This document shows, piece after piece, positions 8,601 through 63,400 of a stretch of 64,000 nucleotides of DNA. Positions within the stretch are counted from its first letter, which is position 1. Each line of letters opens with the position of its first letter. Source of the DNA: Candidatus Bathyarchaeota archaeon (GTDB lineage Archaea; Thermoproteota; Bathyarchaeia; Bathyarchaeales; Bathycorpusculaceae); NCBI GenBank assembly GCA_022865455.1, contig JALHSY010000055.1, forward strand, positions 3,965 to 67,964. Direction: 5' to 3'. Position numbers and translations under genes: made by a program. The notes under the pieces are model-generated. The model saw only the letters and a program-made list of their open reading frames with translations, was not told the origin of the DNA and searched no databases.

Positions 8601-8620
8601 CGTTTTATTTGCATAAAACG
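8601..8620. promoter_or_regulatory. Palindrome CGTTTTAT-TTGC-ATAAAACG (copy 1 of 3)
   Basis: Perfect 8-bp inverted repeat with a 4-nt spacer, 165 nt upstream of the abrB-arsM operon. The same palindrome occurs at 31779-31798 and 34631-34650. Confidence 0.6.
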
Positions 8621-24038: not shown

Positions 24039-24992
24039 TTATTGTTTCTTTTTTGCCTTCACCATCTCTGCTAGTGAGAATGTAGTTGGCGCCACAATCA
24101 TTGGCTGTTCTGGTTGCGGCTGTTCCTTCTGTTCTTTTGCCAAGTTCGCCAGTGAAAATTTGAATGGCGGCGGCATCTTGAAATAGTATTCTTGAAGGTC
24201 AGCGGGATCCCAAAGGTTGCCCAAGTTCCACACCGGGCCCGACGGCGTTGAAGCGTCCAGGTTAAGCATTAACGTGTCAGCTCGGATGATGCTGTAAGGA
24301 TGGTTGCTGAAGAGGGCCATGTTCACTAGGCATGCCCGGTAAAGCGTGACGTCTATTTCAATACCGAACAGGATTAAGGGTTTTTGAGGTTCTAGAAGAG
24401 TGGCTTCTATCAGAAATCGCCCGGTCCCGACACAGGGATCCATGTATGTTATCGGTTCATTCGGCTTCTTTTTCTTCGCAGTTTTCTCATTCTCCGTGAG
24501 AACGCATTTTATCATGAAGTCAACGATCTGTTTGGGCGTCAGCATCTGTCCAAGAGAGTTCTTCCGTCCTGCCAGCTCCAGTTCACAGAATAAGTCGCCT
24601 AAATGGTCCCACGGCTTTGCTCTGGCTGCCACGACATACTGTTCTAGCATGTCTGTCTTTTCAATGTGGTCTAGAATATCCTTCGCGTTAGATGAGAGTT
24701 CAGCCGCAGGATGTATCCATTGGAGCCTCTCGCTTTTCGTGAAAATTGCTCGGTTCTTCCACATTGGAAAGGGGTAAGGGCGTATCATGTTGCTACATTC
24801 TTCTTTGACCATTCGAACATCCATTGTGGGTTTTGAGTAGATCCAGGGATTCGACAGCAAACCCAGATGATAGGCTAACAGTTCAATCAGGACCTCCCAG
24901 CTCCTTCTATAACCAAAGTGGCTTTTCAGGTCGATTTCATGCAGCATCTCGTACAGTATGTCCTTAGGGTTTCCTGTGGCGTAGCGTTTCAC
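24039..24992 (-). CDS. N6-adenine DNA methyltransferase-like protein, apparently truncated or degenerate
   Basis: Contains motif X-like MLTPKQIVDFM, motif I DPCVGTGRFLIEA and LFGIEIDVTLYRACLVNM. PPPF sits at the position of motif IV (D/N)PP(F/Y), and only ~35 aa follow it. The GTG start lies 45 nt downstream of the leader. Confidence 0.7.
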   Translation of the reverse strand: MKRYATGNPKDILYEMLHEIDLKSHFGYRRSWEVLIELLAYHLGLLSNPWIYSKPTMDVRMVKEECSNMIRPYPFPMWKNRAIFTKSERLQWIHPAAELSSNAKDILDHIEKTDMLEQYVVAARAKPWDHLGDLFCELELAGRKNSLGQMLTPKQIVDFMIKCVLTENEKTAKKKKPNEPITYMDPCVGTGRFLIEATLLEPQKPLILFGIEIDVTLYRACLVNMALFSNHPYSIIRADTLMLNLDASTPSGPVWNLGNLWDPADLQEYYFKMPPPFKFSLANLAKEQKEQPQPEQPMIVAPTTFSLAEMVKAKKKQ

Positions 24993-28168: not shown

Positions 28169-28960
28169 TTACTTCTTCTTTGCAGACGGGATAATGAGAA
28201 GGGCCTGGATCGGGGGCAGTGTCTCGAGGGTCTTCACTGGCCGTATTGGGATCTTCACGCCTGGCACGTCTCGCAGGCAGCGGTATTCGACTTTCTTGTT
28301 GCTGATTCGGAGCAGCCATACGAATTGGCCGTCTTTCACTATGGGTACGAGGAACGCGTAGTACTGTGTGAAGCCGCCGTTGGAATAGGTGGTTATCGCT
28401 ATTTCGTCGCGTTTGATTGCGGCGTCAGCTTCATTCCAGAGTTTTAGGTCGTTGCGTGGATCCGCTGCGGGCAGCTCGTATTCTTCATGTATCAAGAAAC
28501 CCTCAAGCATTGTTGAAGAGACCCAATAGGCATCTCCCTGGTCCTGCACTTCCGTTGGTGTTTCTTTGACTTCGATGCGTTCGGTCGGAGGGTAAGGTGC
28601 AACAGGATCTCCGATGCTGCTGTCAGGGTTCACTAGGTAATACTCGATCTTTTTCTTGTCAACCGTTTCGCCTTTCTTGTTGACGGCAAGATTCTTTGTG
28701 TGCTCGAGTATGCATCTAGCCTTAGCTACAGGTATCAGGTTGCCTTTCGAGTCCTTCAGTATGGTTTCGACCTGCAACTCTTCGCCTGTACCGACAATCT
28801 CCCAATGGCTCGTGTCGACTACTCGACACTCCCTCACTGGTTCGCCGTCTACCAGCTCCGTAAGCTGCGGGTCTTGGATCAGTAGTGCGTTGCCGACTCT
28901 CTGCTTGCACACTCTCACGTCTGCATTGCCTATTTTCAGCCAAATCGTCGATGTGGGCAT
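28169..28960 (-). CDS. Hypothetical protein, weak Ku-like pattern
   Basis: 263 aa with N-terminal TIWLKIGNADVRV and C-terminal YELPAAD...EIAITTYSNGGFTQYYAFLVP...LLRISNKKVEYR. These are loosely reminiscent of prokaryotic Ku. It lies next to the ligase. Confidence 0.5.
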   Translation of the reverse strand: MPTSTIWLKIGNADVRVCKQRVGNALLIQDPQLTELVDGEPVRECRVVDTSHWEIVGTGEELQVETILKDSKGNLIPVAKARCILEHTKNLAVNKKGETVDKKKIEYYLVNPDSSIGDPVAPYPPTERIEVKETPTEVQDQGDAYWVSSTMLEGFLIHEEYELPAADPRNDLKLWNEADAAIKRDEIAITTYSNGGFTQYYAFLVPIVKDGQFVWLLRISNKKVEYRCLRDVPGVKIPIRPVKTLETLPPIQALLIIPSAKKK

Positions 28961-29487: not shown

Positions 29488-29508
29488 CCCGACAGAAAAA
29501 AGGAGAGT

Positions 29509-29793
29509 TTAGAAGCTGTCTTTCAGCCGACGCATAATCTCTTCTTCATTGAAATTTTCAGCTTCGATAATCTCCGTTGGGATAACAATCGGATGAAGAG
29601 CATTGCGAGCGGTTCTTATCTCCGATGAACCTACTATGTTTTTGACTGCCTCTATAATGGCTTCGCCTTCTCCTACAGCTTCTAGAATCTGCACACTCAC
29701 CAGAACAACAGCTATTTTAGGCAAAACTTTCACCCCAGAAAGCATTGTAGCGTCTACGCTAACCCTGCCCCTTTTCCTTACCGTGCAAATCAC
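29509..29793 (-). CDS. Hypothetical protein, first gene of cassette array
   Basis: The track start at 29793 is a GTG. An internal ATG at 29745 (MLSGVKVL) is an alternative. No full leader copy lies upstream. Confidence 0.4.
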   Translation of the reverse strand: MICTVRKRGRVSVDATMLSGVKVLPKIAVVLVSVQILEAVGEGEAIIEAVKNIVGSSEIRTARNALHPIVIPTEIIEAENFNEEEIMRRLKDSF

Positions 29794-30436
29794 TTCGCAT
29801 GGCTGCCTGCGTTTGCCTACTCAAAAATTGAGAGCTTGCAAGACAATGAATTTGGGGGTGGCTCTTACAAGCATGTGGCAAAACGTAAAGAGGCTTCTGT
29901 TTTGTGTTTCAACAGGCTATCCCTCTTATGTCACTGGCTTCCCCGCCAATCACCTCTAAAAGAGAGCCCTACCATCACCTTAAAACATTAGCTTTAAGGT
30001 CGGTTGGTGTCCTAGTCGGTTACCTGTCCAGTGTTCTACATTGGGGTGGTGCCTGTTTCCCATACAGGCGGCGGTCATAACACTAGACAGACCTTTAGGG
30101 CGAACAGCATAGACGCTTCTCCATTTGTCGTGGGCTTTTCTCCAGCCGAGCTTACGCTGGCGAAAGTTTCACATTTTCAAGCAATAAAAAATGCTGGCTC
30201 TCCTTTCGCTTTCCTCACGTCTCCTTTCTAATTAAACTCCAAGAAGGGCTACGCCTTCTGTTTAACCTAGGTGACGCATTACGAGGACGACTTTTAGAGT
30301 GCCCACGTGTTAGTGCCTTTATTCTGTCCTACGGGCTTTTAGCTCTGGGGGGTGATCTTTCCATACCGTCGTCGGGCTAGCCGAACGACTATAGTACAGA
30401 CAAAAGGGGAGGGTTGGTGCGATAAGACTAGGTGTC

Positions 30437-30925
30437 TTACAGCTTTTTCTTCTGCTTGCTCTGCTCTAGCGCCTTCTGCATCCATTCGGACAGGCTGAAG
30501 CGGGGTGCGACGGGGTGTCCTAGCTCTTTCAAAGAGTCAGGAATAGCCACAGCATCGCAGTATTTCTGAGCTTGGACTAGAGGCTTCACTTTGTCTTGGA
30601 ATGGCTTGCGGGCTGTGGCAGCCGTCTTTCTGAGGTCTGTCAAGTCCTTCTGGTTGGCTTTGATTGCGGCTCTCAGGTCATCAGTAGCGTCTTCTATGTA
30701 AGAGTCGATGTTCTCAGAGAGTTGTTTACCCTTCTCTCTGACAGCCTTAGTCTCGTCTTTGGTCTTCTCAGCCATGTCCTGCTGAGTCAGTCGGCGAGCC
30801 ATGAAATAGCCGTATCTTTCAGCTACAAGCTCAGTAAAAGCCTCTAGCATGTCCATCTTGGATGGAACTGCCTCGGCTGGAACAGCCTGAGCAGTTTGAG
30901 CAGATTGGGCATTACGTCTTGGCAA
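30437..30925 (-). CDS. Hypothetical helical protein
   Basis: 162-aa ORF with a TTG start. An internal ATG giving MDMLEAF is possible. Confidence 0.45.
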   Translation of the reverse strand: MPRRNAQSAQTAQAVPAEAVPSKMDMLEAFTELVAERYGYFMARRLTQQDMAEKTKDETKAVREKGKQLSENIDSYIEDATDDLRAAIKANQKDLTDLRKTAATARKPFQDKVKPLVQAQKYCDAVAIPDSLKELGHPVAPRFSLSEWMQKALEQSKQKKKL

Positions 30926-30998
30926 GGTTTATTTTCTCCCTAATTTGAGGAAACTAACCCCTTGCGCTATTTTGCCGTAGAGGATTTCAGAAAGGCTT

Positions 30999-31292
30999 TT
31001 ACTCCCTGTCGCCCAATCCAGAAAAAGGGATATTTTGGAGACTTGGAAACTTGCGTATAGCTTTCCAAAACCCCACGTTATTGATTACACGTTCCAGAGT
31101 GCCGACTGTCTCCTTATCGCTGAACCGCACAATACTAAAATTGTCGAAGTCATGCAGAGGTATCCTTATCACAAAAACCCAACATTCCTTATGCGACTTG
31201 TTTCTGTGTTTTGCCATGCAGTCCTTAAACGTGGAAACGTCTTGACTCTTGACTATGTAACCGCAGTCTTTACACTTGCCCACGTACAACAT
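30999..31292 (-). CDS. Hypothetical zinc-finger-like protein
   Basis: 97 aa with a CKDCG...C..H..SH pattern. Confidence 0.45.
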   Translation of the reverse strand: MLYVGKCKDCGYIVKSQDVSTFKDCMAKHRNKSHKECWVFVIRIPLHDFDNFSIVRFSDKETVGTLERVINNVGFWKAIRKFPSLQNIPFSGLGDRE

Positions 31293-31715
31293 ACCAAAAC
31301 CCCTGTTTATTTGTGGGCGACAGTTTAGAGAAGCCTTAGTAATCCTCAGTAATCAAATCTTAAAGGCTTTATTCTGCTTCAAAAGTGTTTTATTCCGCCT
31401 TTTTGAATATTCGCCTAAGATTTAGGCGTTTACTCACTTATGCGTCTTATTTAAGACGTGAAACGCTATTCTAAAGGTTTTTTGCGTTTCGCCCTTCCAG
31501 AGCTACACTTTTTAACCTTCTCCGAAGGCACAGCCAAAAACTCACTAAATAGGCGCAATAGCCTTTTTAGGACAGCCTAAGGCTTGTTTGGTAAATTGTG
31601 GCGTTTTTGTTCACTCTGAAACACCTAACAGCTCAACAGAGTTGCACAGCTTTAGCGGTCTTGCGTTTATCTCTAGGCTTCTAAGTTTGCCGTTTAGCTT
31701 GTTCTTGCCCATGTT

Positions 31716-31744
31716 GGTTATCGTTGCACTTTAGCACGATAACC
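31716..31744. promoter_or_regulatory. Perfect 9-bp inverted repeat GGTTATCGT-N11-ACGATAACC
   Basis: Read directly. It lies in the 900-nt non-coding region 31293-32186. Confidence 0.5.
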
Positions 31745-31778
31745 AAAAGCACTTCGTGCAAACAACTATTTAAACATG

Positions 31779-31798
31779 CGTTTTATTCACATAAAACG
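31779..31798. promoter_or_regulatory. Palindrome CGTTTTAT-TCAC-ATAAAACG (copy 2 of 3)
   Basis: Same 8+4+8 structure and the same GAA 3' flank as the copies at 8601 and 34631. Confidence 0.6.
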
Positions 31799-32136
31799 AA
31801 CATGACAAAGACATATCTTTGTCCAAATCTGAATAATCTTGCCATATTTCCATTATTCCGACATTATTTAACCTTAGAAGCTAGAACGGATAAGGTAAGC
31901 TAGGCTATGGAAGCTTAAGGACTCTATTCTAAGGCTTAATATGCGACAGGAACCCAAATCTAAGGATAAGTATCCACCTGAAAGCTCCTTTCAAGGATAT
32001 GTTCAACAGAGAAGATTCTAAGAGAAGTTACCTTGGAAGCGACCGTGTAGTCTGGGATTTTCATTTTGGCCTGTTTTAGCAAGAGGGAGGAGACGCCGCC
32101 TGCGCACTTACGTCTAGGGAGTTGTCTTTTCTCAGA

Positions 32137-32916
32137 ATCTCGAGAGCTGTTCCAAGTCCAGATATGCTTCCTCCTATAATTGAGATTTGTCTGGCAGACA
32201 AGTTGTTCGCCTCGAGATGATTTATTTTCACATTCTGTCTATTTGTGCTTTTAGTTCCAGATACTTCTCGAGATATTGCCAGTTGAAGGGATTATCTCGA
32301 GATGGTAAAATATTTGTACTCGAGACTGAAGAAGAGGACAGTCTCGAGAAGAAGGCGCCAGATGAGCCAGATGAGCTTAAAGGGTTATTCGAGAAGCCTC
32401 GAGATGAAGGAAAAGAGGATGAGGAGATACTCAGAGAGGTATTCGAGTCAAATCCTAATGCCGACATAAAGAAGCTTGTGGAAGCAACTGGGCTTCCTGC
32501 CCTGACACTTGGCAGGATCAAAGGACTAATCTCGATACGACGTAAGCGAGACTCGAGAGCATCTGGGAAGCATCTGGAAGAGGGCGAGGTAAGTGAACCG
32601 GACGCCAGGCAGCTTGTGGCTCAGTTCGGTCGGGATGGACTGAACAAGCTCAAACGCGGGTTCCTGAAGAAAACTTTGGCTCTTGCGCCTGGAATGGCTG
32701 ACAAGACAGCCGAGTGGATCCTTCACAAGTGGGACATAAACCCGAGAGTTCAGGACGATCCGAACACATTCTATGAGATGCTTCACAACGATGCTGGGTT
32801 GAAACCGAACATCGCCATTTCGATTGCCAAGGATGTTTTCAGTTTGGAGGAGCAGTACGCTGATATTCTCGAGGACAAGGGCGAGAAACCTATTTTCATC
32901 TCAGGCAGTCCTCGAG
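32137..32916. repeat. Cluster of ten CTCGAG(A) iterons
   Basis: CTCGAG occurs at 32139, 32211, 32267, 32296, 32319, 32343, 32398, 32552, 32868 and 32911, plus TTCGAG, CTCGAT and CTCAGAG variants. The sites fall in all three phases of the overlapping ORF. Confidence 0.75.
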
Positions 32917-33176
32917 TCTCTGGCTCGCCTACTGGAGAACCTATTCTGTACCGAAGAGACCAGTATTCACAGAGCACGGGGCCTTTCGAAGTGTCTGGGA
33001 GAGGAGGTCGCGGAAATTATCCTGACCAGCCAGGACAGTTTCTGACTATGGAAGCATATCTGAAACTTGAGCGTGAAAAAGAGGAAAAACGACGGATAGA
33101 GAAGATTGAAGACAAAATGGAGAAAATGACCCAGGAAATCGATTCTTTCAAGAAAGGCTTCGATATATGGGTCTGA
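32187..33176 (+). CDS. Hypothetical protein (5' third doubtful)
   Basis: 329-aa ORF with a TTG start. The C-terminal two-thirds look protein-like. The first ~130 codons coincide with the iteron cluster and may be non-coding. Confidence 0.45.
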   Translation: MSGRQVVRLEMIYFHILSICAFSSRYFSRYCQLKGLSRDGKIFVLETEEEDSLEKKAPDEPDELKGLFEKPRDEGKEDEEILREVFESNPNADIKKLVEATGLPALTLGRIKGLISIRRKRDSRASGKHLEEGEVSEPDARQLVAQFGRDGLNKLKRGFLKKTLALAPGMADKTAEWILHKWDINPRVQDDPNTFYEMLHNDAGLKPNIAISIAKDVFSLEEQYADILEDKGEKPIFISGSPRVSGSPTGEPILYRRDQYSQSTGPFEVSGRGGRGNYPDQPGQFLTMEAYLKLEREKEEKRRIEKIEDKMEKMTQEIDSFKKGFDIWV

Positions 33177-33220
33177 GTGGAGAAGACTACATAGAGTCTC
33201 TTGTTTTTCATTGGCTTTTC

Positions 33221-34207
33221 CTAGGAGCGTTTCTTTGCACCGAATTCGCCGTTTCTAATTGCTTGGAAAACTTGACTAACACTCCTAAAGAAGTGTGAAG
33301 GAATGGTCACCAATGCTCTAGTCAAAGCAAGAGCGAAATCGGTGTGTTCAGCCGTTCCACCCTGCAAGACGTCTGCCCAAAGATATGGACGGTATCTTGC
33401 AAGGCTGGAAGCCGCGAAAACAAGGATATAGTCTTTGAAAAAATTGGATGGAGAGTAGGTAAGGTCAATAAAATCGGTAGAAAAACGCTTTCCAATTAAC
33501 TCCATATTTGCTGTTTCATCAAAAGCCTTCGCATCAAAAGCTAGGAGCTGCTTTAGCGAAATGCATTCAGAGCCTTTGAATAGAAAGTGGTTGTTCGCAA
33601 CAAAAGCGATTTCTTCTTTCTCCATTATCGGTAGGAAAGGAGAAAAGGCCAAACAGGCGCCCAGAAGTACTCCAGTATCAATGAATCTCTGAAAGATCGT
33701 TCCGTTGCTCTTAATTACTTTAATCTCCATGTCCAGAAGTTTATCCGACCATTTGGAAATTTTTACTCCATGAGAAGTGGCATGTTCAGGAGTCCACTTG
33801 AAAAACGTATAGTTGAAGAATGAAATGAAGCAGTGTATAGAGTAATGGTACAGGACAGGAGCCACCATGTCACTTGTCCGAGAAGCTATCTTCCACAGTT
33901 CAATGGCATTTTTCAAAAGCGCAACATTCTGCGAAGCCACTTCAGGGTGCTTTCCCGAATACTCAGTCGTTACAACGTCGACGCGGTTTCCGCTCATCTC
34001 TGAATATCGTTTTACCACATCGTCAAGAGGAACAAACGTCTTGTTAATCTGACCCTGTAGGGTCTTATAGGGGTGCAGAAGAGTGAGAGTTTCGAAGAGC
34101 CTCCAATATTCATCACTTATGAATGAACGCAGCACTGCCAATCCCATCATGAGCTTCTTGTGGCTACTCTTAAGCTTTGCACAAGGGTGTGATATCGAGA
34201 GTGCCAT
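33221..34207 (-). CDS. Hypothetical protein, possibly YaaC-like
   Basis: 328 aa. PVLYHYSIHCFISFF and FAASSLARYRPYLWADVLQG resemble my recollection of the YaaC-like family. Unverified. Confidence 0.5.
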   Translation of the reverse strand: MALSISHPCAKLKSSHKKLMMGLAVLRSFISDEYWRLFETLTLLHPYKTLQGQINKTFVPLDDVVKRYSEMSGNRVDVVTTEYSGKHPEVASQNVALLKNAIELWKIASRTSDMVAPVLYHYSIHCFISFFNYTFFKWTPEHATSHGVKISKWSDKLLDMEIKVIKSNGTIFQRFIDTGVLLGACLAFSPFLPIMEKEEIAFVANNHFLFKGSECISLKQLLAFDAKAFDETANMELIGKRFSTDFIDLTYSPSNFFKDYILVFAASSLARYRPYLWADVLQGGTAEHTDFALALTRALVTIPSHFFRSVSQVFQAIRNGEFGAKKRS

Positions 34208-34221
34208 ATCTCATCCATGTT

Positions 34222-34494
34222 TCACAACAATCTGAAGTAGGCCACCTTCTCAAGATCTTTCTCTCCCTTCTTTTCTCTGACTAGTGGGTGACGTTCGACA
34301 GTCTTCAGAGCCGACTTCACATTTTCCTCTTTGAGATCAGTTGCTCTAGCGATGTCTGCAGGTGAGCGCCAAACATTGGGATTTTGTCTCAAATACAAGA
34401 AGACTCTAGCCCGCGAACCAAAAGGGAGTTCTTCTGTTCTTTCATCGTCCGCTACTGGCTTTCCGTCTCTAATTCCGATTTCTATCCTTTTCAC
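34222..34494 (-). CDS. Small winged-helix DNA-binding protein (paralog of 62234..62503)
   Basis: RVFLYLRQNPNVWRSPADIARATDLKEENVKSALKTVERHPLV...YFRLL aligns at roughly 45 percent identity with the ORF at 62234. Confidence 0.6.
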   Translation of the reverse strand: MKRIEIGIRDGKPVADDERTEELPFGSRARVFLYLRQNPNVWRSPADIARATDLKEENVKSALKTVERHPLVREKKGEKDLEKVAYFRLL

Positions 34495-34630
34495 CTCCTA
34501 TGCCCTATAGAAAGGCCAAACCTGACCCCAATTAGAGTTCTTGAGCTCCTTTTATTTTAGTTTTGCGCCTCATTTTCGGCGCTTCATTTGTCCACAGCGG
34601 CATTGCACAGCGCATTTCAATGCATCTTTC

Positions 34631-34650
34631 CGTTTTATGCCTATAAAACG
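34631..34650. promoter_or_regulatory. Palindrome CGTTTTAT-GCCT-ATAAAACG (copy 3 of 3)
   Basis: Lies 137 nt upstream of the wHTH gene start at 34494. Confidence 0.6.
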
Positions 34651-34702
34651 AAAATGACGGCAAATCTTATTATAAAAATCCTTGATGCAGTTAGCAGAAG
34701 GT

Positions 34703-34745
34703 GAAGGCGGGGTGGCCATCACCTGCTAGGAGGCCAACCCCCTTC
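34703..34745. other. GC-rich stem-loop (13 bp with one bulge and one mismatch, 14-nt loop)
   Basis: GAAGGCGGGGTGGCC-loop-GGCCAACCCCCTTC, paired by hand. It contains the 8-mer GCCATCAC. Confidence 0.5.
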
Positions 34746-35248
34746 ATAGTCTCACTTTAAACAATGAACTGGACGAAATCCACACTTCAAGAGCTTTTTC
34801 TTTTGTTCCAAAAAAGAGATGTTGAAACTCCCGACAAGTCCTGCCTTTCTTGAGGAAGAAGCTGCATGGAAGACGCAGAATCTGGAGGCATGAGGAGGCG
34901 CGACTGCATTAGATTTTTTGACTATCGAAAGAGGGCGTAATTCTCTGATTGTATGTGCCAATCTTGCTCGACGTCGTCTCAAGTCAGTTTCGAAACTCTT
35001 AGTAGAATACTGCCCTTTTCATCTTCAACAAAGACGATGAGGTTTCCTATTTTGGCATTTAGCTTTTCTTGCACGGATTTGACGAGGGTTACTCTATATT
35101 TTGGGCCGACCTTGCTAGTTCCTAAAACTTTCTCCACTTGTGTCACCCTCGCCTGTTTCTACTCTGCATAGACTGTTAAAAGTAGGTGAGTAAAGTAGCA
35201 CAAGTGTTAAATGTCGCACGAAGCAACGTCAAATGGGGACCGACTAAA

Positions 35249-62233: not shown

Positions 62234-62503
62234 GTGAAAGAGACGGAAAAGACTGTTAGTAACAAAGGCTCGAAAAAAGAACTGCCATACTTGACGATTG
62301 GGGATGATCTGCGAGTGTTTCTTTTTTTGAGAAGGAGAAGCGGCAGTTGGTATACGCATGAAGACCTAGCTAGAGACGCTGGACTTGAGATGGAAGCAGT
62401 GAAGTCAGCCGTCAAAACGATTCGACATCATCCACTTATTGAAACGGAAAAAGATGAGGAAGGTCGTGAAAAGGTGGGTTTCTTCAGACTGCTCAGGACA
62501 TAG
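62234..62503 (+). CDS. Small winged-helix DNA-binding protein (paralog of 34222..34494)
   Basis: Contains LRVFLFLRRRSGSWYTHEDLARDAGLEMEAVKSAVKTIRHHPLI...FFRLL. Confidence 0.6.
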   Translation: MKETEKTVSNKGSKKELPYLTIGDDLRVFLFLRRRSGSWYTHEDLARDAGLEMEAVKSAVKTIRHHPLIETEKDEEGREKVGFFRLLRT

Positions 62504-62984
62504 CAGAGTAAAACAGGTGCCCGCGCTAGGGTTCTTAGCTTTTCAGACGATTCTGAGAGAAAAGTCTGGCAACTTGTAGAGAACCTCGTTAGGCGAGAAA
62601 TGAATCCACGCTGGCTGATTCTTTCCCGGATTTGGAAAAGCGGTTCATTTCTAGTGCCATCAATGGCAGTTGATTTAGGCTTCTTTTCGCCGTTGGCGAC
62701 CTGTGTTCCGAGATGCAACTCTCAGGTTGAGCAAGAGCTTCATGCTTTCGGTATTCTATTCCTCGAATTGGCATCTTATAACTTGCGGCAAGGTGTTTTG
62801 TCGCTCCAGTGGTGTCTACTGCACAATTCCCACTTCCGCCTGCAATGGATTTTGGCATCAAGATTCTTTATTCAGAGAAGCTGAAGCAAAACACACTCGT
62901 TCTTCCAGACATGTCGAGACGTCTTGAAGGTCACTCTAGGCATCAGGAGGACTTGACGAGGTCTCCTGCAATAGGTCTGCAGAA

Positions 62985-63400
62985 TTCTCGAAGCAAAAAA
63001 GGCTCGGGAACACCCTTGGGTCAAAGGGTATTCGGAACTCGACGCTCTCGAAATATGTGAGAATCATCTCGAGATGTCTCGGGGCGTTCGCAAGTCCTCG
63101 AGACTCTGAAGACCCCGAGATATTAGGGACCCTTGACCCTTTCGCGAGATAGCCGGGTCTTCTCCAGAGCCTGGCTAATGCAACCAAACGCTCTTCAGAA
63201 TAGAAAGAGAGAACTCGAGAAGCACTTCAACTGACTGGGCCCGTCTAAGGCCTGATTTCGCCAGTCATACTCCCAGACACCAGAAAGACCCAAGAAGAGC
63301 TTGTCCAGAGCACCTCCACGCTTCTCGAGATTCCAAAGTCCAAGCATACCAGCAGTACTCGGAGTTTCGAGAAATGCCAGTTTCGTCGAGGAATCTCGCT
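62985..63400. repeat. Second cluster of CTCGAG(A) iterons
   Basis: CTCGAG occurs at 63068, 63097, 63214 and 63324, plus CTCGAA, CTCGAC, CCCGAG and TTCGAG variants. The region has only weak overlapping ORFs. Confidence 0.65.

Follow-up and report, generated by a model that had tools for sequence, protein, structure and literature searches.

A cluster of CTCGAG palindromes on a captured fragment with a putative promoter in a Bathyarchaeia mobile element

Bathyarchaeia are abundant, uncultured sediment archaea, and to our knowledge nothing has been shown experimentally about the maintenance or regulation of their mobile elements. We analyzed a 64,000-nucleotide (nt) stretch of the genome of a Candidatus Bathyarchaeota archaeon, referred to here as the window (C206:3965-67964, in an assembly of 2.01 Mb and 257 contigs), in which the palindromic hexamer CTCGAG occurs 22 times; 10 of these 22 occurrences fall between positions 32139 and 32916, a span of 780 bp. 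The cluster covers the remains of two divergent genes within mobile-element DNA, namely the 5' end of a geranylgeranyl reductase (GGR) gene and a truncated copy, X', of a gene whose full-length product we call X. Coordinates of these and neighboring features are collected in Table 1. An earlier note on this DNA had counted ten sites in 780 bp, including a group of seven in 265 bp, and had placed them in phases 0, 1 and 2 relative to the annotated open reading frame (ORF) 32187-33176, and our recount of the positions agrees on each point (phases relative to 32187, from site 32211 onward: 0, 2, 1, 0, 0, 1, 2, 0 and 1). The spacings between successive sites are irregular (72, 56, 29, 23, 24, 55, 154, 316 and 43 bp).

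Table 1. Array sites and associated features in the window (aa, amino acids; HTH, helix-turn-helix; wHTH, winged HTH).
Feature	Coordinates	Strand	Basis
CTCGAG sites starting at 32139, 32211, 32267, 32296, 32319, 32343, 32398, 32552, 32868 and 32911	32139-32916		
Core array of seven sites, consensus (A)TCTCGAGA(T)	32139-32403	none	site positions, homologous arrays
Three further sites in conserved coding sequence: 32552 (D-S-R), 32868 (I-L-E-D), 32911 (S-P-R-V)	32552-32916		
GGR 5' remnant, residues ~4-65, with internal deletion	32008-32201	-	tblastn with intact GGR of locus L027
Former divergent GGR/X promoter region, expanded allele	32202-32312	none	alignment with chromosomal loci
X', truncated copy (~287 aa homologous) of a ~510-aa protein, C-terminal ~200 aa lost	32313-33176	+	
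HTH-like segment and basic arm of X' (ADIKKLVEATGLPALTLGRIKGLISIRRKR)	32460-32549	+	sequence pattern, AlphaFold helices
Cargo insertion between X' and element backbone: YaaC-like gene (33221-34207) and wHTH1 (34222-34494)	33221-34494	-	
AbrB/SpoVT-type small DNA-binding protein; backbone gene after X' in the window, L006 and L016	34979-35146	-	
wHTH2, wHTH1 paralogue (44% identity), immediately upstream of the second cluster	62234-62503	+	
Second CTCGAG cluster: sites 63068, 63097, 63214 and 63324, with CTCGAA/TTCGAG words	62985-63400	none	

The genome-wide count of CTCGAG that the earlier note had called for excludes a general over-representation of the word, which we rejected as an explanation. 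The whole assembly holds 252 copies (0.125 per kb), with an observed/expected ratio of 0.75 under a 4th-order Markov model, i.e. the word is mildly avoided. The expectation for 780 bp is 0.098 sites, and the Poisson probability of finding at least ten is 2e-17, or about 1e-13 once the number of windows is corrected for. No 800-bp interval of the genome is denser in CTCGAG; the runner-up has four sites and lies on the same contig, at 63068-63324 of the window. What the sites have in common is a word of only 6-12 nt: the longest exact repeat is 12 nt (GCCTCGAGATGA, present twice), and Tandem Repeats Finder reported nothing on the array beyond a 9-nt unit in two copies. Of the 14 sites in the two clusters, 12 have an A immediately after the hexamer, versus 36% genome-wide (P = 2e-4), and the commonest 9-mer in both is ATCTCGAGA or its complement. 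The extended consensus of the sites is ATCTCGAGAT, a 10-mer with exactly two occurrences in 2 Mb, one per cluster.

These flanks bear on whether the array could be a methylation or restriction signal, i.e. a group of targets for a CTCGAG (XhoI-type) or TCGA enzyme that works as a methylation-sensitive switch. CTCGAG is a classical type II target, its genome-wide avoidance fits such a role, and the element encodes an N6-adenine methyltransferase (24039-24992). Clusters of GATC in E. coli oriC and hexamer repeats in phage P1 pac are short-word clusters of the methylation type. The array resembles them in that a short palindromic word is locally in strong excess and lies partly within a gene; it differs from them in having no known cognate methyltransferase or methyl-reader and in that the preferred flanks (ATCTCGAGAT) extend past the hexamer and lengthen the word to 10 bp. 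Moreover, TCGA is about as frequent in the genome as base composition predicts (3.6 per kb), and the element does not avoid CTCGAG outside the cluster: on its left side, ~10 kb of element genes contain three sites. A search of the genome for an XhoI-family nuclease (PF04555), made without a positive control, found none. We regard a methylation or restriction signal as very unlikely.

The earlier note had also taken the sites for a DNA-level signal, and several lines of evidence uphold this. All three phases are represented, and there are sites in non-coding DNA as well as in the remnant of an opposite-strand gene: the site at 32139 lies in Ala-Leu-Glu codons of the GGR remnant, and the one at 32211 overlaps its GAGG ribosome-binding site. 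Within the coding part CTCGAG exceeds synonymous-codon shuffles (P = 0.0002), and some sites arose by amino-acid-changing substitutions, as described below. A peptide repeat or a tandem DNA repeat was rejected because of the three phases, the presence of sites in non-coding DNA and the lack of any longer unit. Alternatively, the signal might act at the RNA or single-strand level, with the palindromes pairing into hairpins in a transcript or in single-stranded DNA. Neighboring sites do form extended inverted repeats (32266-32280/32288-32302 and 32314-32328/32339-32353; 15 nt, 87%), and the folding z-scores of the array are -1.8 on the plus strand and -2.3 on the minus strand; these scores are modest, however, as any set of palindromes would give, an Rfam scan of 29500-35200 returned no match, and site number and spacing differ between relatives with no fixed structure kept, which leaves hairpins highly improbable.

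Comparison of gene order by tblastn over all fetched loci (numbered with the prefix L) splits them into two classes. Class A loci carry a full GGR gene, a full X gene and an ATPase gene: GGR is divergent from X, which is followed by a gene for a 400-430-aa P-loop ATPase and then by a gene of ~90 aa. Class B loci, the type present in the window, consist of the element genes p162 and p97 (window 30437-31292), then ~700 nt of non-coding DNA, GGR residues ~4-65 on the minus strand, the old intergenic region and X cut after 95-314 residues. The GGR remnant retains a TTG start (32201-32199) and the GxGxxG motif; its intact homologues are matched by PF22578. The left junction, from element DNA to GGR codon ~65, is the same in every class B locus that retains the GGR fragment, which indicates a single capture; the right junctions vary. 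The close relatives all derive from a single set of sediment metagenomes and do not count as independent, and an IMG/VR search with the neighboring element gene p97 gave no match.

The host genome contains no full-length X, no orthologous ATPase and no matching 3' part of GGR, and in 401 genomes of the same order X sequence was found only in the host and in one genome of another genus, in both cases as class B fragments. The fragment is therefore foreign and element-carried, and integration into the host's own GGR gene was rejected on the same absences. The array region is thus a chromosomal fragment of ~1.1 kb captured by a mobile element. A backbone segment of this element (window ~34600-34700, then the AbrB-like gene) comes directly after X' in several loci and after other cargo in L016.

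In sequence databases, 27 relatives of the annotated ORF 32187-33176 were found. Those of full length have about 500-520 aa, and their start aligns with window position ~32320 ("ETEEED"). No homologue has a counterpart to the ~42 codons with which the annotated ORF opens (32187-32312), and these overlap the GGR remnant and the old promoter. The view in the earlier note that the 5' third of this ORF is non-coding thus applies to these spurious codons, but it was too broad, since the protein is conserved from about 32313 and X' is probably expressed in many elements, that of the window included; sites 32319, 32343 and 32398 are within real coding sequence. Most class B loci have lost the original ribosome-binding site and ATG by deletion, and therefore the reading frame now begins inside the array. 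The lineages nonetheless retain an in-frame start of one kind or another (an ATG right after CTCGAG, giving MVKYLY..., or an ATG in MFVLETE...), and L016 and L034 retain the original Shine-Dalgarno sequence and ATG. The window copy is among those that lack the original ribosome-binding site and ATG; in its lineage X' may start at ATG 32217 or TTG 32283, with the upstream frame held open by a 1-nt difference. For residues ~30-200, pairwise comparison gave a dN/dS of 0.18 for class B copies and 0.15 for class A copies; the low class B value may be partly inherited. Class B variants mirror class A variants, which suggests recombination between the classes, and five X' copies contain stop codons or frameshifts.

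The class A loci reveal what the captured fragment may have looked like. Their GGR/X intergenic region is 95-130 nt long and aligns as CCTCGAAA-N17(TATA-like)-TCTCGAAT-...GGTGGT-N4-ATG, where CCTCGAAA and TCTCGAAT flank the TATA-like box of a predicted promoter ~45 nt upstream of the X start, and the CCTCGAAA word overlaps the opposite-strand GAGG ribosome-binding site of GGR. Within its first ~100 codons, class A X carries TCGA-core words in all three phases (GTC GAG, CTC GAA, cgT CGA Gaa, TTC GAG, TCG Ata and TCG AGg), and TCGA-core words in the chromosomal loci stand at positions matching window sites. The stretch richest in TCGA in each close class A contig coincides exactly with the GGR/X promoter and the 5' end of X, with 8-10 TCGA in about 350 nt versus 3.3-4.5 per kb, and this excess is above that of synonymous shuffles in three of four genes (P = 0.001-0.009). 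Loci of distant X homologues, which have a C2H2 zinc-finger head or a more divergent HTH-like head, showed no TCGA cluster. In the window, the old promoter region includes an AT-rich stretch (32217-32258) and a TATA-like box (32305-32318), and sites 32296 and 32319 bracket this box, 'ggtaaaatatttgta', of the putative promoter.

The two classes differ in how well the word is formed. In their 300-nt 5' regions, class A loci have 0-1 perfect CTCGAG and 4-7 one-mismatch words, and class B loci have up to 7 perfect CTCGAG and 1-3 one-mismatch words. Related element-borne loci keep homologous arrays of 4-9 sites that vary in copy number and spacing; the genome of another genus has 6 sites in 330 bp with X' reduced to ~95 codons, and in L033 the array persists although X' is nearly gone. 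Site 32211 is CTCGAA in class A and CTCGAG in most GGR-linked class B loci (CTCGAA in L003), site 32319 is CTCGAA or CTGGAG in class A and CTCGAG in nine class B loci, and site 32343 is GTCGAG in three class A loci and CTCGAG in 15 of 17 class B loci. Site 32552, which is either CTCGAG or CTCGAA in all relatives, is CTCGAA in three of five class A loci and CTCGAG in 15 of 17 class B loci. At 32398, class A has GTCGAG or GTCGAA, and CTCGAG is found in the window and L023, where a G-to-C change replaces Arg with Pro, and also in L033. Five loci (L004, L014, L016, L018 and L021) gained another site from TTCGAG via a Phe-to-Leu change; a lengthened intergenic allele (32217-32301) accounts for additional sites, as do local duplications in L002 and L014. 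Site 32868 is CTCGAG in all five chromosomal relatives despite synonymous divergence, and among class B loci it is CTCGAG in nine and CTCGAA in four. Single loci have lost sites (CTCTAG in L004, CTAGAG in L001 and GTCGAG in L009).

Counted from alignments rather than from a tree, these changes include at least five separate point substitutions, all towards CTCGAG, two of which change an amino acid. The element-borne copies have turned weak TCGA-core words into perfect CTCGAG, partly through amino-acid-changing substitutions and duplications. Could the array nonetheless be a functionless by-product, left when a TCGA-rich promoter was captured and then reshaped by microhomology-mediated duplications and drift? 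Several rearrangement joints do lie at or beside the repeated word, the losses in L004 and L001 and the CTCGAA at 32868 in four loci would be expected under it, and so would the stop codons in some X' copies. It does not account for substitutions that run in one direction at the cost of amino-acid changes, for the array that outlasts X' in L033, or for an unrelated second cluster with the same 10-mer, and the ancestral TCGA excess itself needs explaining. A by-product without function is, in our judgment, unlikely.

The second cluster lies in ~1.1 kb without credible ORFs, and is the second-best cluster of the genome for CTCGAR (7 words in 400 bp, P = 2e-8). We detected no homology between it and the first array. 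The wHTH genes are relevant here because the earlier note had proposed the product of the adjacent wHTH gene (34222-34494) as the binder of the first array. That gene, wHTH1, proved to be part of a cargo insertion specific to the window: no wHTH gene was found in the compared stretches of the other loci with the array, and we rejected wHTH1 as a syntenic partner of the array since the YaaC and wHTH1 insertion is seen only in the window. Two relatives of wHTH2 (79% and 59% identity) have no cluster nearby. The sole wHTH1 relative found (P0130, 68% identity; L044) precedes a non-coding stretch of 870 nt that contains 4 CTCGAG and 18 TCGA, and at L044:2730-2960 a core of ~220 bp is close to 90% identical to window ~62900-63120 and inverted relative to the wHTH gene. 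The linkage of the wHTH family is thus to the second cluster type and not to the first array. A longer motif, TCTCGACATGTCTGGA, occurs three times in L044.

The earlier note had suggested iterons or centromere-like binding sites. As replication-origin iterons, each cluster would mark an element origin bound by an element or host initiator. Like plasmid iterons, the first array is a repeated word beside gene-free, AT-rich DNA in a mobile element: it adjoins a gene-free, palindrome-rich region of ~900 nt (31293-32186) and contains the AT-rich stretch at 32217-32258. The second cluster occupies 1.1 kb of non-coding DNA in a small integrated wHTH module next to a putative integrase gene and a tRNA-like sequence, and L014 has an X' fragment behind a P4-type primase gene. 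Unlike plasmid iterons, which are regular direct repeats of 17-22 bp beside a rep gene, the array has neither such a unit nor regular spacing (23-316 bp); its word is a palindrome of 6-10 bp, no replication gene stands beside it in the window, and its near-sites are ancestral to a chromosomal promoter without replication genes within 10 kb. Iterons are therefore quite unlikely, and the part of the suggestion that we retain as the best reading is an array of binding sites, possibly centromere-like.

With regard to element context, an integrase-like reverse frame, a tRNA-like sequence and a malate/lactate-dehydrogenase-type gene were seen by eye on C206 beyond the window (~64000-66000), which suggests that the window covers a tRNA-integrated island. 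At L014:1208-4930, the X' fragment (with a frameshift and a stop codon) comes after an 861-aa P4-family primase gene and after a 74-aa ORF, read as HTH-like, whose own sequence is rich in TTCGAA, CTCGAG and CTCGAA. The 5' fragment of X' thus moves between different backbones.

The reading that we favor, with a probability of about one half, is that the array consists of docking sites for a dimeric, sequence-specific DNA-binding protein on a captured and sharpened promoter fragment. A family of Bathyarchaeia elements captured once a foreign chromosomal piece of ~1.1 kb, containing the back-to-back promoter and the 5' ends of the GGR gene and of X, the first gene of an X-ATPase operon. Weak source words (CTCGAA, GTCGAG and TTCGAG) were then converted to perfect CTCGAG and multiplied in the element copies. 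Coverage of the promoter and of the initial ~300 bp of X' by this protein would repress or tune the promoter, and would possibly mark the element for centromere-like maintenance. The case for binding sites is built on a DNA word selected in three phases, on two sites that bracket a TATA-like box, on the persistence of the array when X' shrinks and on the use of the same 10-mer in an unrelated array; from this sequence evidence we infer both protein binding and an effect of binding. The X protein is otherwise under purifying selection (dN/dS 0.18), yet the R-to-P and F-to-L gains create sites. There are three candidates for the binder: the N-terminal region of X/X' itself, proteins of the wHTH family and, as an alternative, the AbrB-like protein encoded in the element backbone.

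X had no match in Pfam, NCBIfam, PHROGs, PADLOC or a sequence search of the PDB. An AlphaFold model of a 512-aa homologue has an all-helical N-terminal domain (residues ~10-190, pLDDT above 90), and beyond this domain come a linker modelled as disordered, long coiled coils and a small beta unit; Foldseek searches with the full model and with the N-domain alone gave no significant match. The segment ADIKKLVEATGLPALTLGRIKG followed by SIRRKRDSR resembles a helix-turn-helix with a basic arm, a putative DNA-binding module, and distant X homologues carry a C2H2 zinc finger at the HTH-like position. Comparison of X with HTH families gave no match even at E = 10.

The partner of X offers another clue. 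The ATPase gene overlaps the X stop codon and is present after full-length X in all full-length relatives. Its product matches PF10609 (NUBPL/Mrp type) at 5e-44, with weaker matches to MinD, ParA and MipZ models. Since the source loci link X to a gene of the MinD/ParA superfamily, a partition-like role for the array is possible, and the centromere-like option gains some support from the translational coupling of full-length ORF homologues to this Mrp/MinD/ParA-superfamily ATPase gene. As in centromere arrays, short sites are clustered at the operon of a putative binder (seven sites, at the X' promoter and 5' end), and as in the operators of autoregulators, sites bracket the predicted core promoter of the binder's own gene.

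Several observations weigh against docking sites with a regulatory or centromere-like function. The ATPase is nearest to Mrp/NUBPL iron-sulfur carriers, although without the CxxC motif, and not to partition ParA, and its conserved neighbors are lipid genes (GGR and UbiA). Full-length X and the ATPase are both absent from the host genome. No DNA-binding domain was demonstrated in X by Pfam, NCBIfam, PHROGs or Foldseek on two AlphaFold models. The spacing of sites lacks helical phasing, some copies have lost sites or acquired stop codons, and microhomology between the repeated words can explain much of the change in copy number.

Known systems provide partial parallels for such an array. ParB-parS and archaeal SegB-type sites are short palindromes near or inside the gene of their own binder, beside a gene for a ParA-superfamily ATPase. 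The CTCGAG array is similarly an irregularly spaced short palindrome, with copies both upstream of and within a gene that may encode a DNA-binding adaptor, and chromosomal X is coupled to a deviant-Walker-A ATPase gene. Unlike in those systems, the ATPase is Mrp/MinD-like, X has no detectable ParB, ribbon-helix-helix or SegB-like domain, and the copy in the window has no ATPase gene. The omega heptads of pSM19035 and the ParG tetramer boxes of TP228 are contiguous boxes repeated every 7-8 bp, are bound by ribbon-helix-helix proteins and serve as operator and centromere alike. The array shares with these 4-7-bp boxes the presence of many very short words over a promoter, in either orientation and with a copy number that varies between relatives, but the CTCGAG sites are separated by 23-72 bp and continue into coding sequence. 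Full-text literature searches found no described CTCGAG array in archaeal elements.

A more far-reaching version of the centromere option, which we put forward as an improbable speculation, is that X and the Mrp/MinD-type ATPase form a hitherto undescribed archaeal system for DNA positioning or segregation, whose site array covers the promoter of the system itself, and that this array, together with the DNA-binding head of X, was stolen by elements and sharpened to perfect ATCTCGAGAT palindromes. If this were true, the array would hitch-hike on, or interfere with, host machinery, and unrelated small wHTH-bearing elements would have converged on the same word. Independently of this speculation, the locus offers a concrete cis-element, a 10-bp palindrome in two unrelated arrays with a short list of candidate binders. 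It also suggests an unusual evolutionary route, in which a fragment of a host promoter was captured once and its weak sites were sharpened by DNA-level selection despite the amino-acid cost. Finally, it defines a conserved trio of geranylgeranyl reductase, X and Mrp/MinD-type ATPase. We observed this trio at L027:8841-13108 and in L042, L043, L024-L026 and L035, on Bathyarchaeia-like contigs and in a metagenome-assembled genome of Calditenuaceae; the X of the trio has ~450-520 aa with an HTH-like or C2H2 zinc-finger N-terminus, and a ~90-aa gene usually comes after the ATPase.

Other repeated words were noticed in the course of the analysis. An IMG/VR search with a three-site CTCGAGA pattern returned 84 unrelated stretches with no genes in common. 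The word CCAGAT(A) recurs beside CTCGAGAT sites, e.g. in ccagatacttCTCGAGatattgccag, at window 32158-32280 and 32357-32374 and also in L013/L014 and L018/L021, and is tandemly repeated in some relatives. Contig C181 carries, in the interval ~17.8-28.1 kb, three copies of TCTCGAGA and an additional CTCGAGAT, spaced roughly 4 kb apart. Window positions 28572-28948, inside a 263-aa element gene (28169-28960), contain 8 TCGA over 377 nt (P about 1e-4), one of them in the CTCGAG at 28703. A different, perfect palindrome with 8-bp stems and a variable 4-nt center, CGTTTTAT-N4-ATAAAACG, occurs at window 8601-8620, 31779-31798 and 34631-34650 (three copies versus 0.03 expected) and also in L001-L034 and the class A contigs L027-L029. 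Many of its copies, on element and chromosomal contigs, lie just downstream of a TATA-like box, and the palindrome looks like a widely used operator or hairpin signal.

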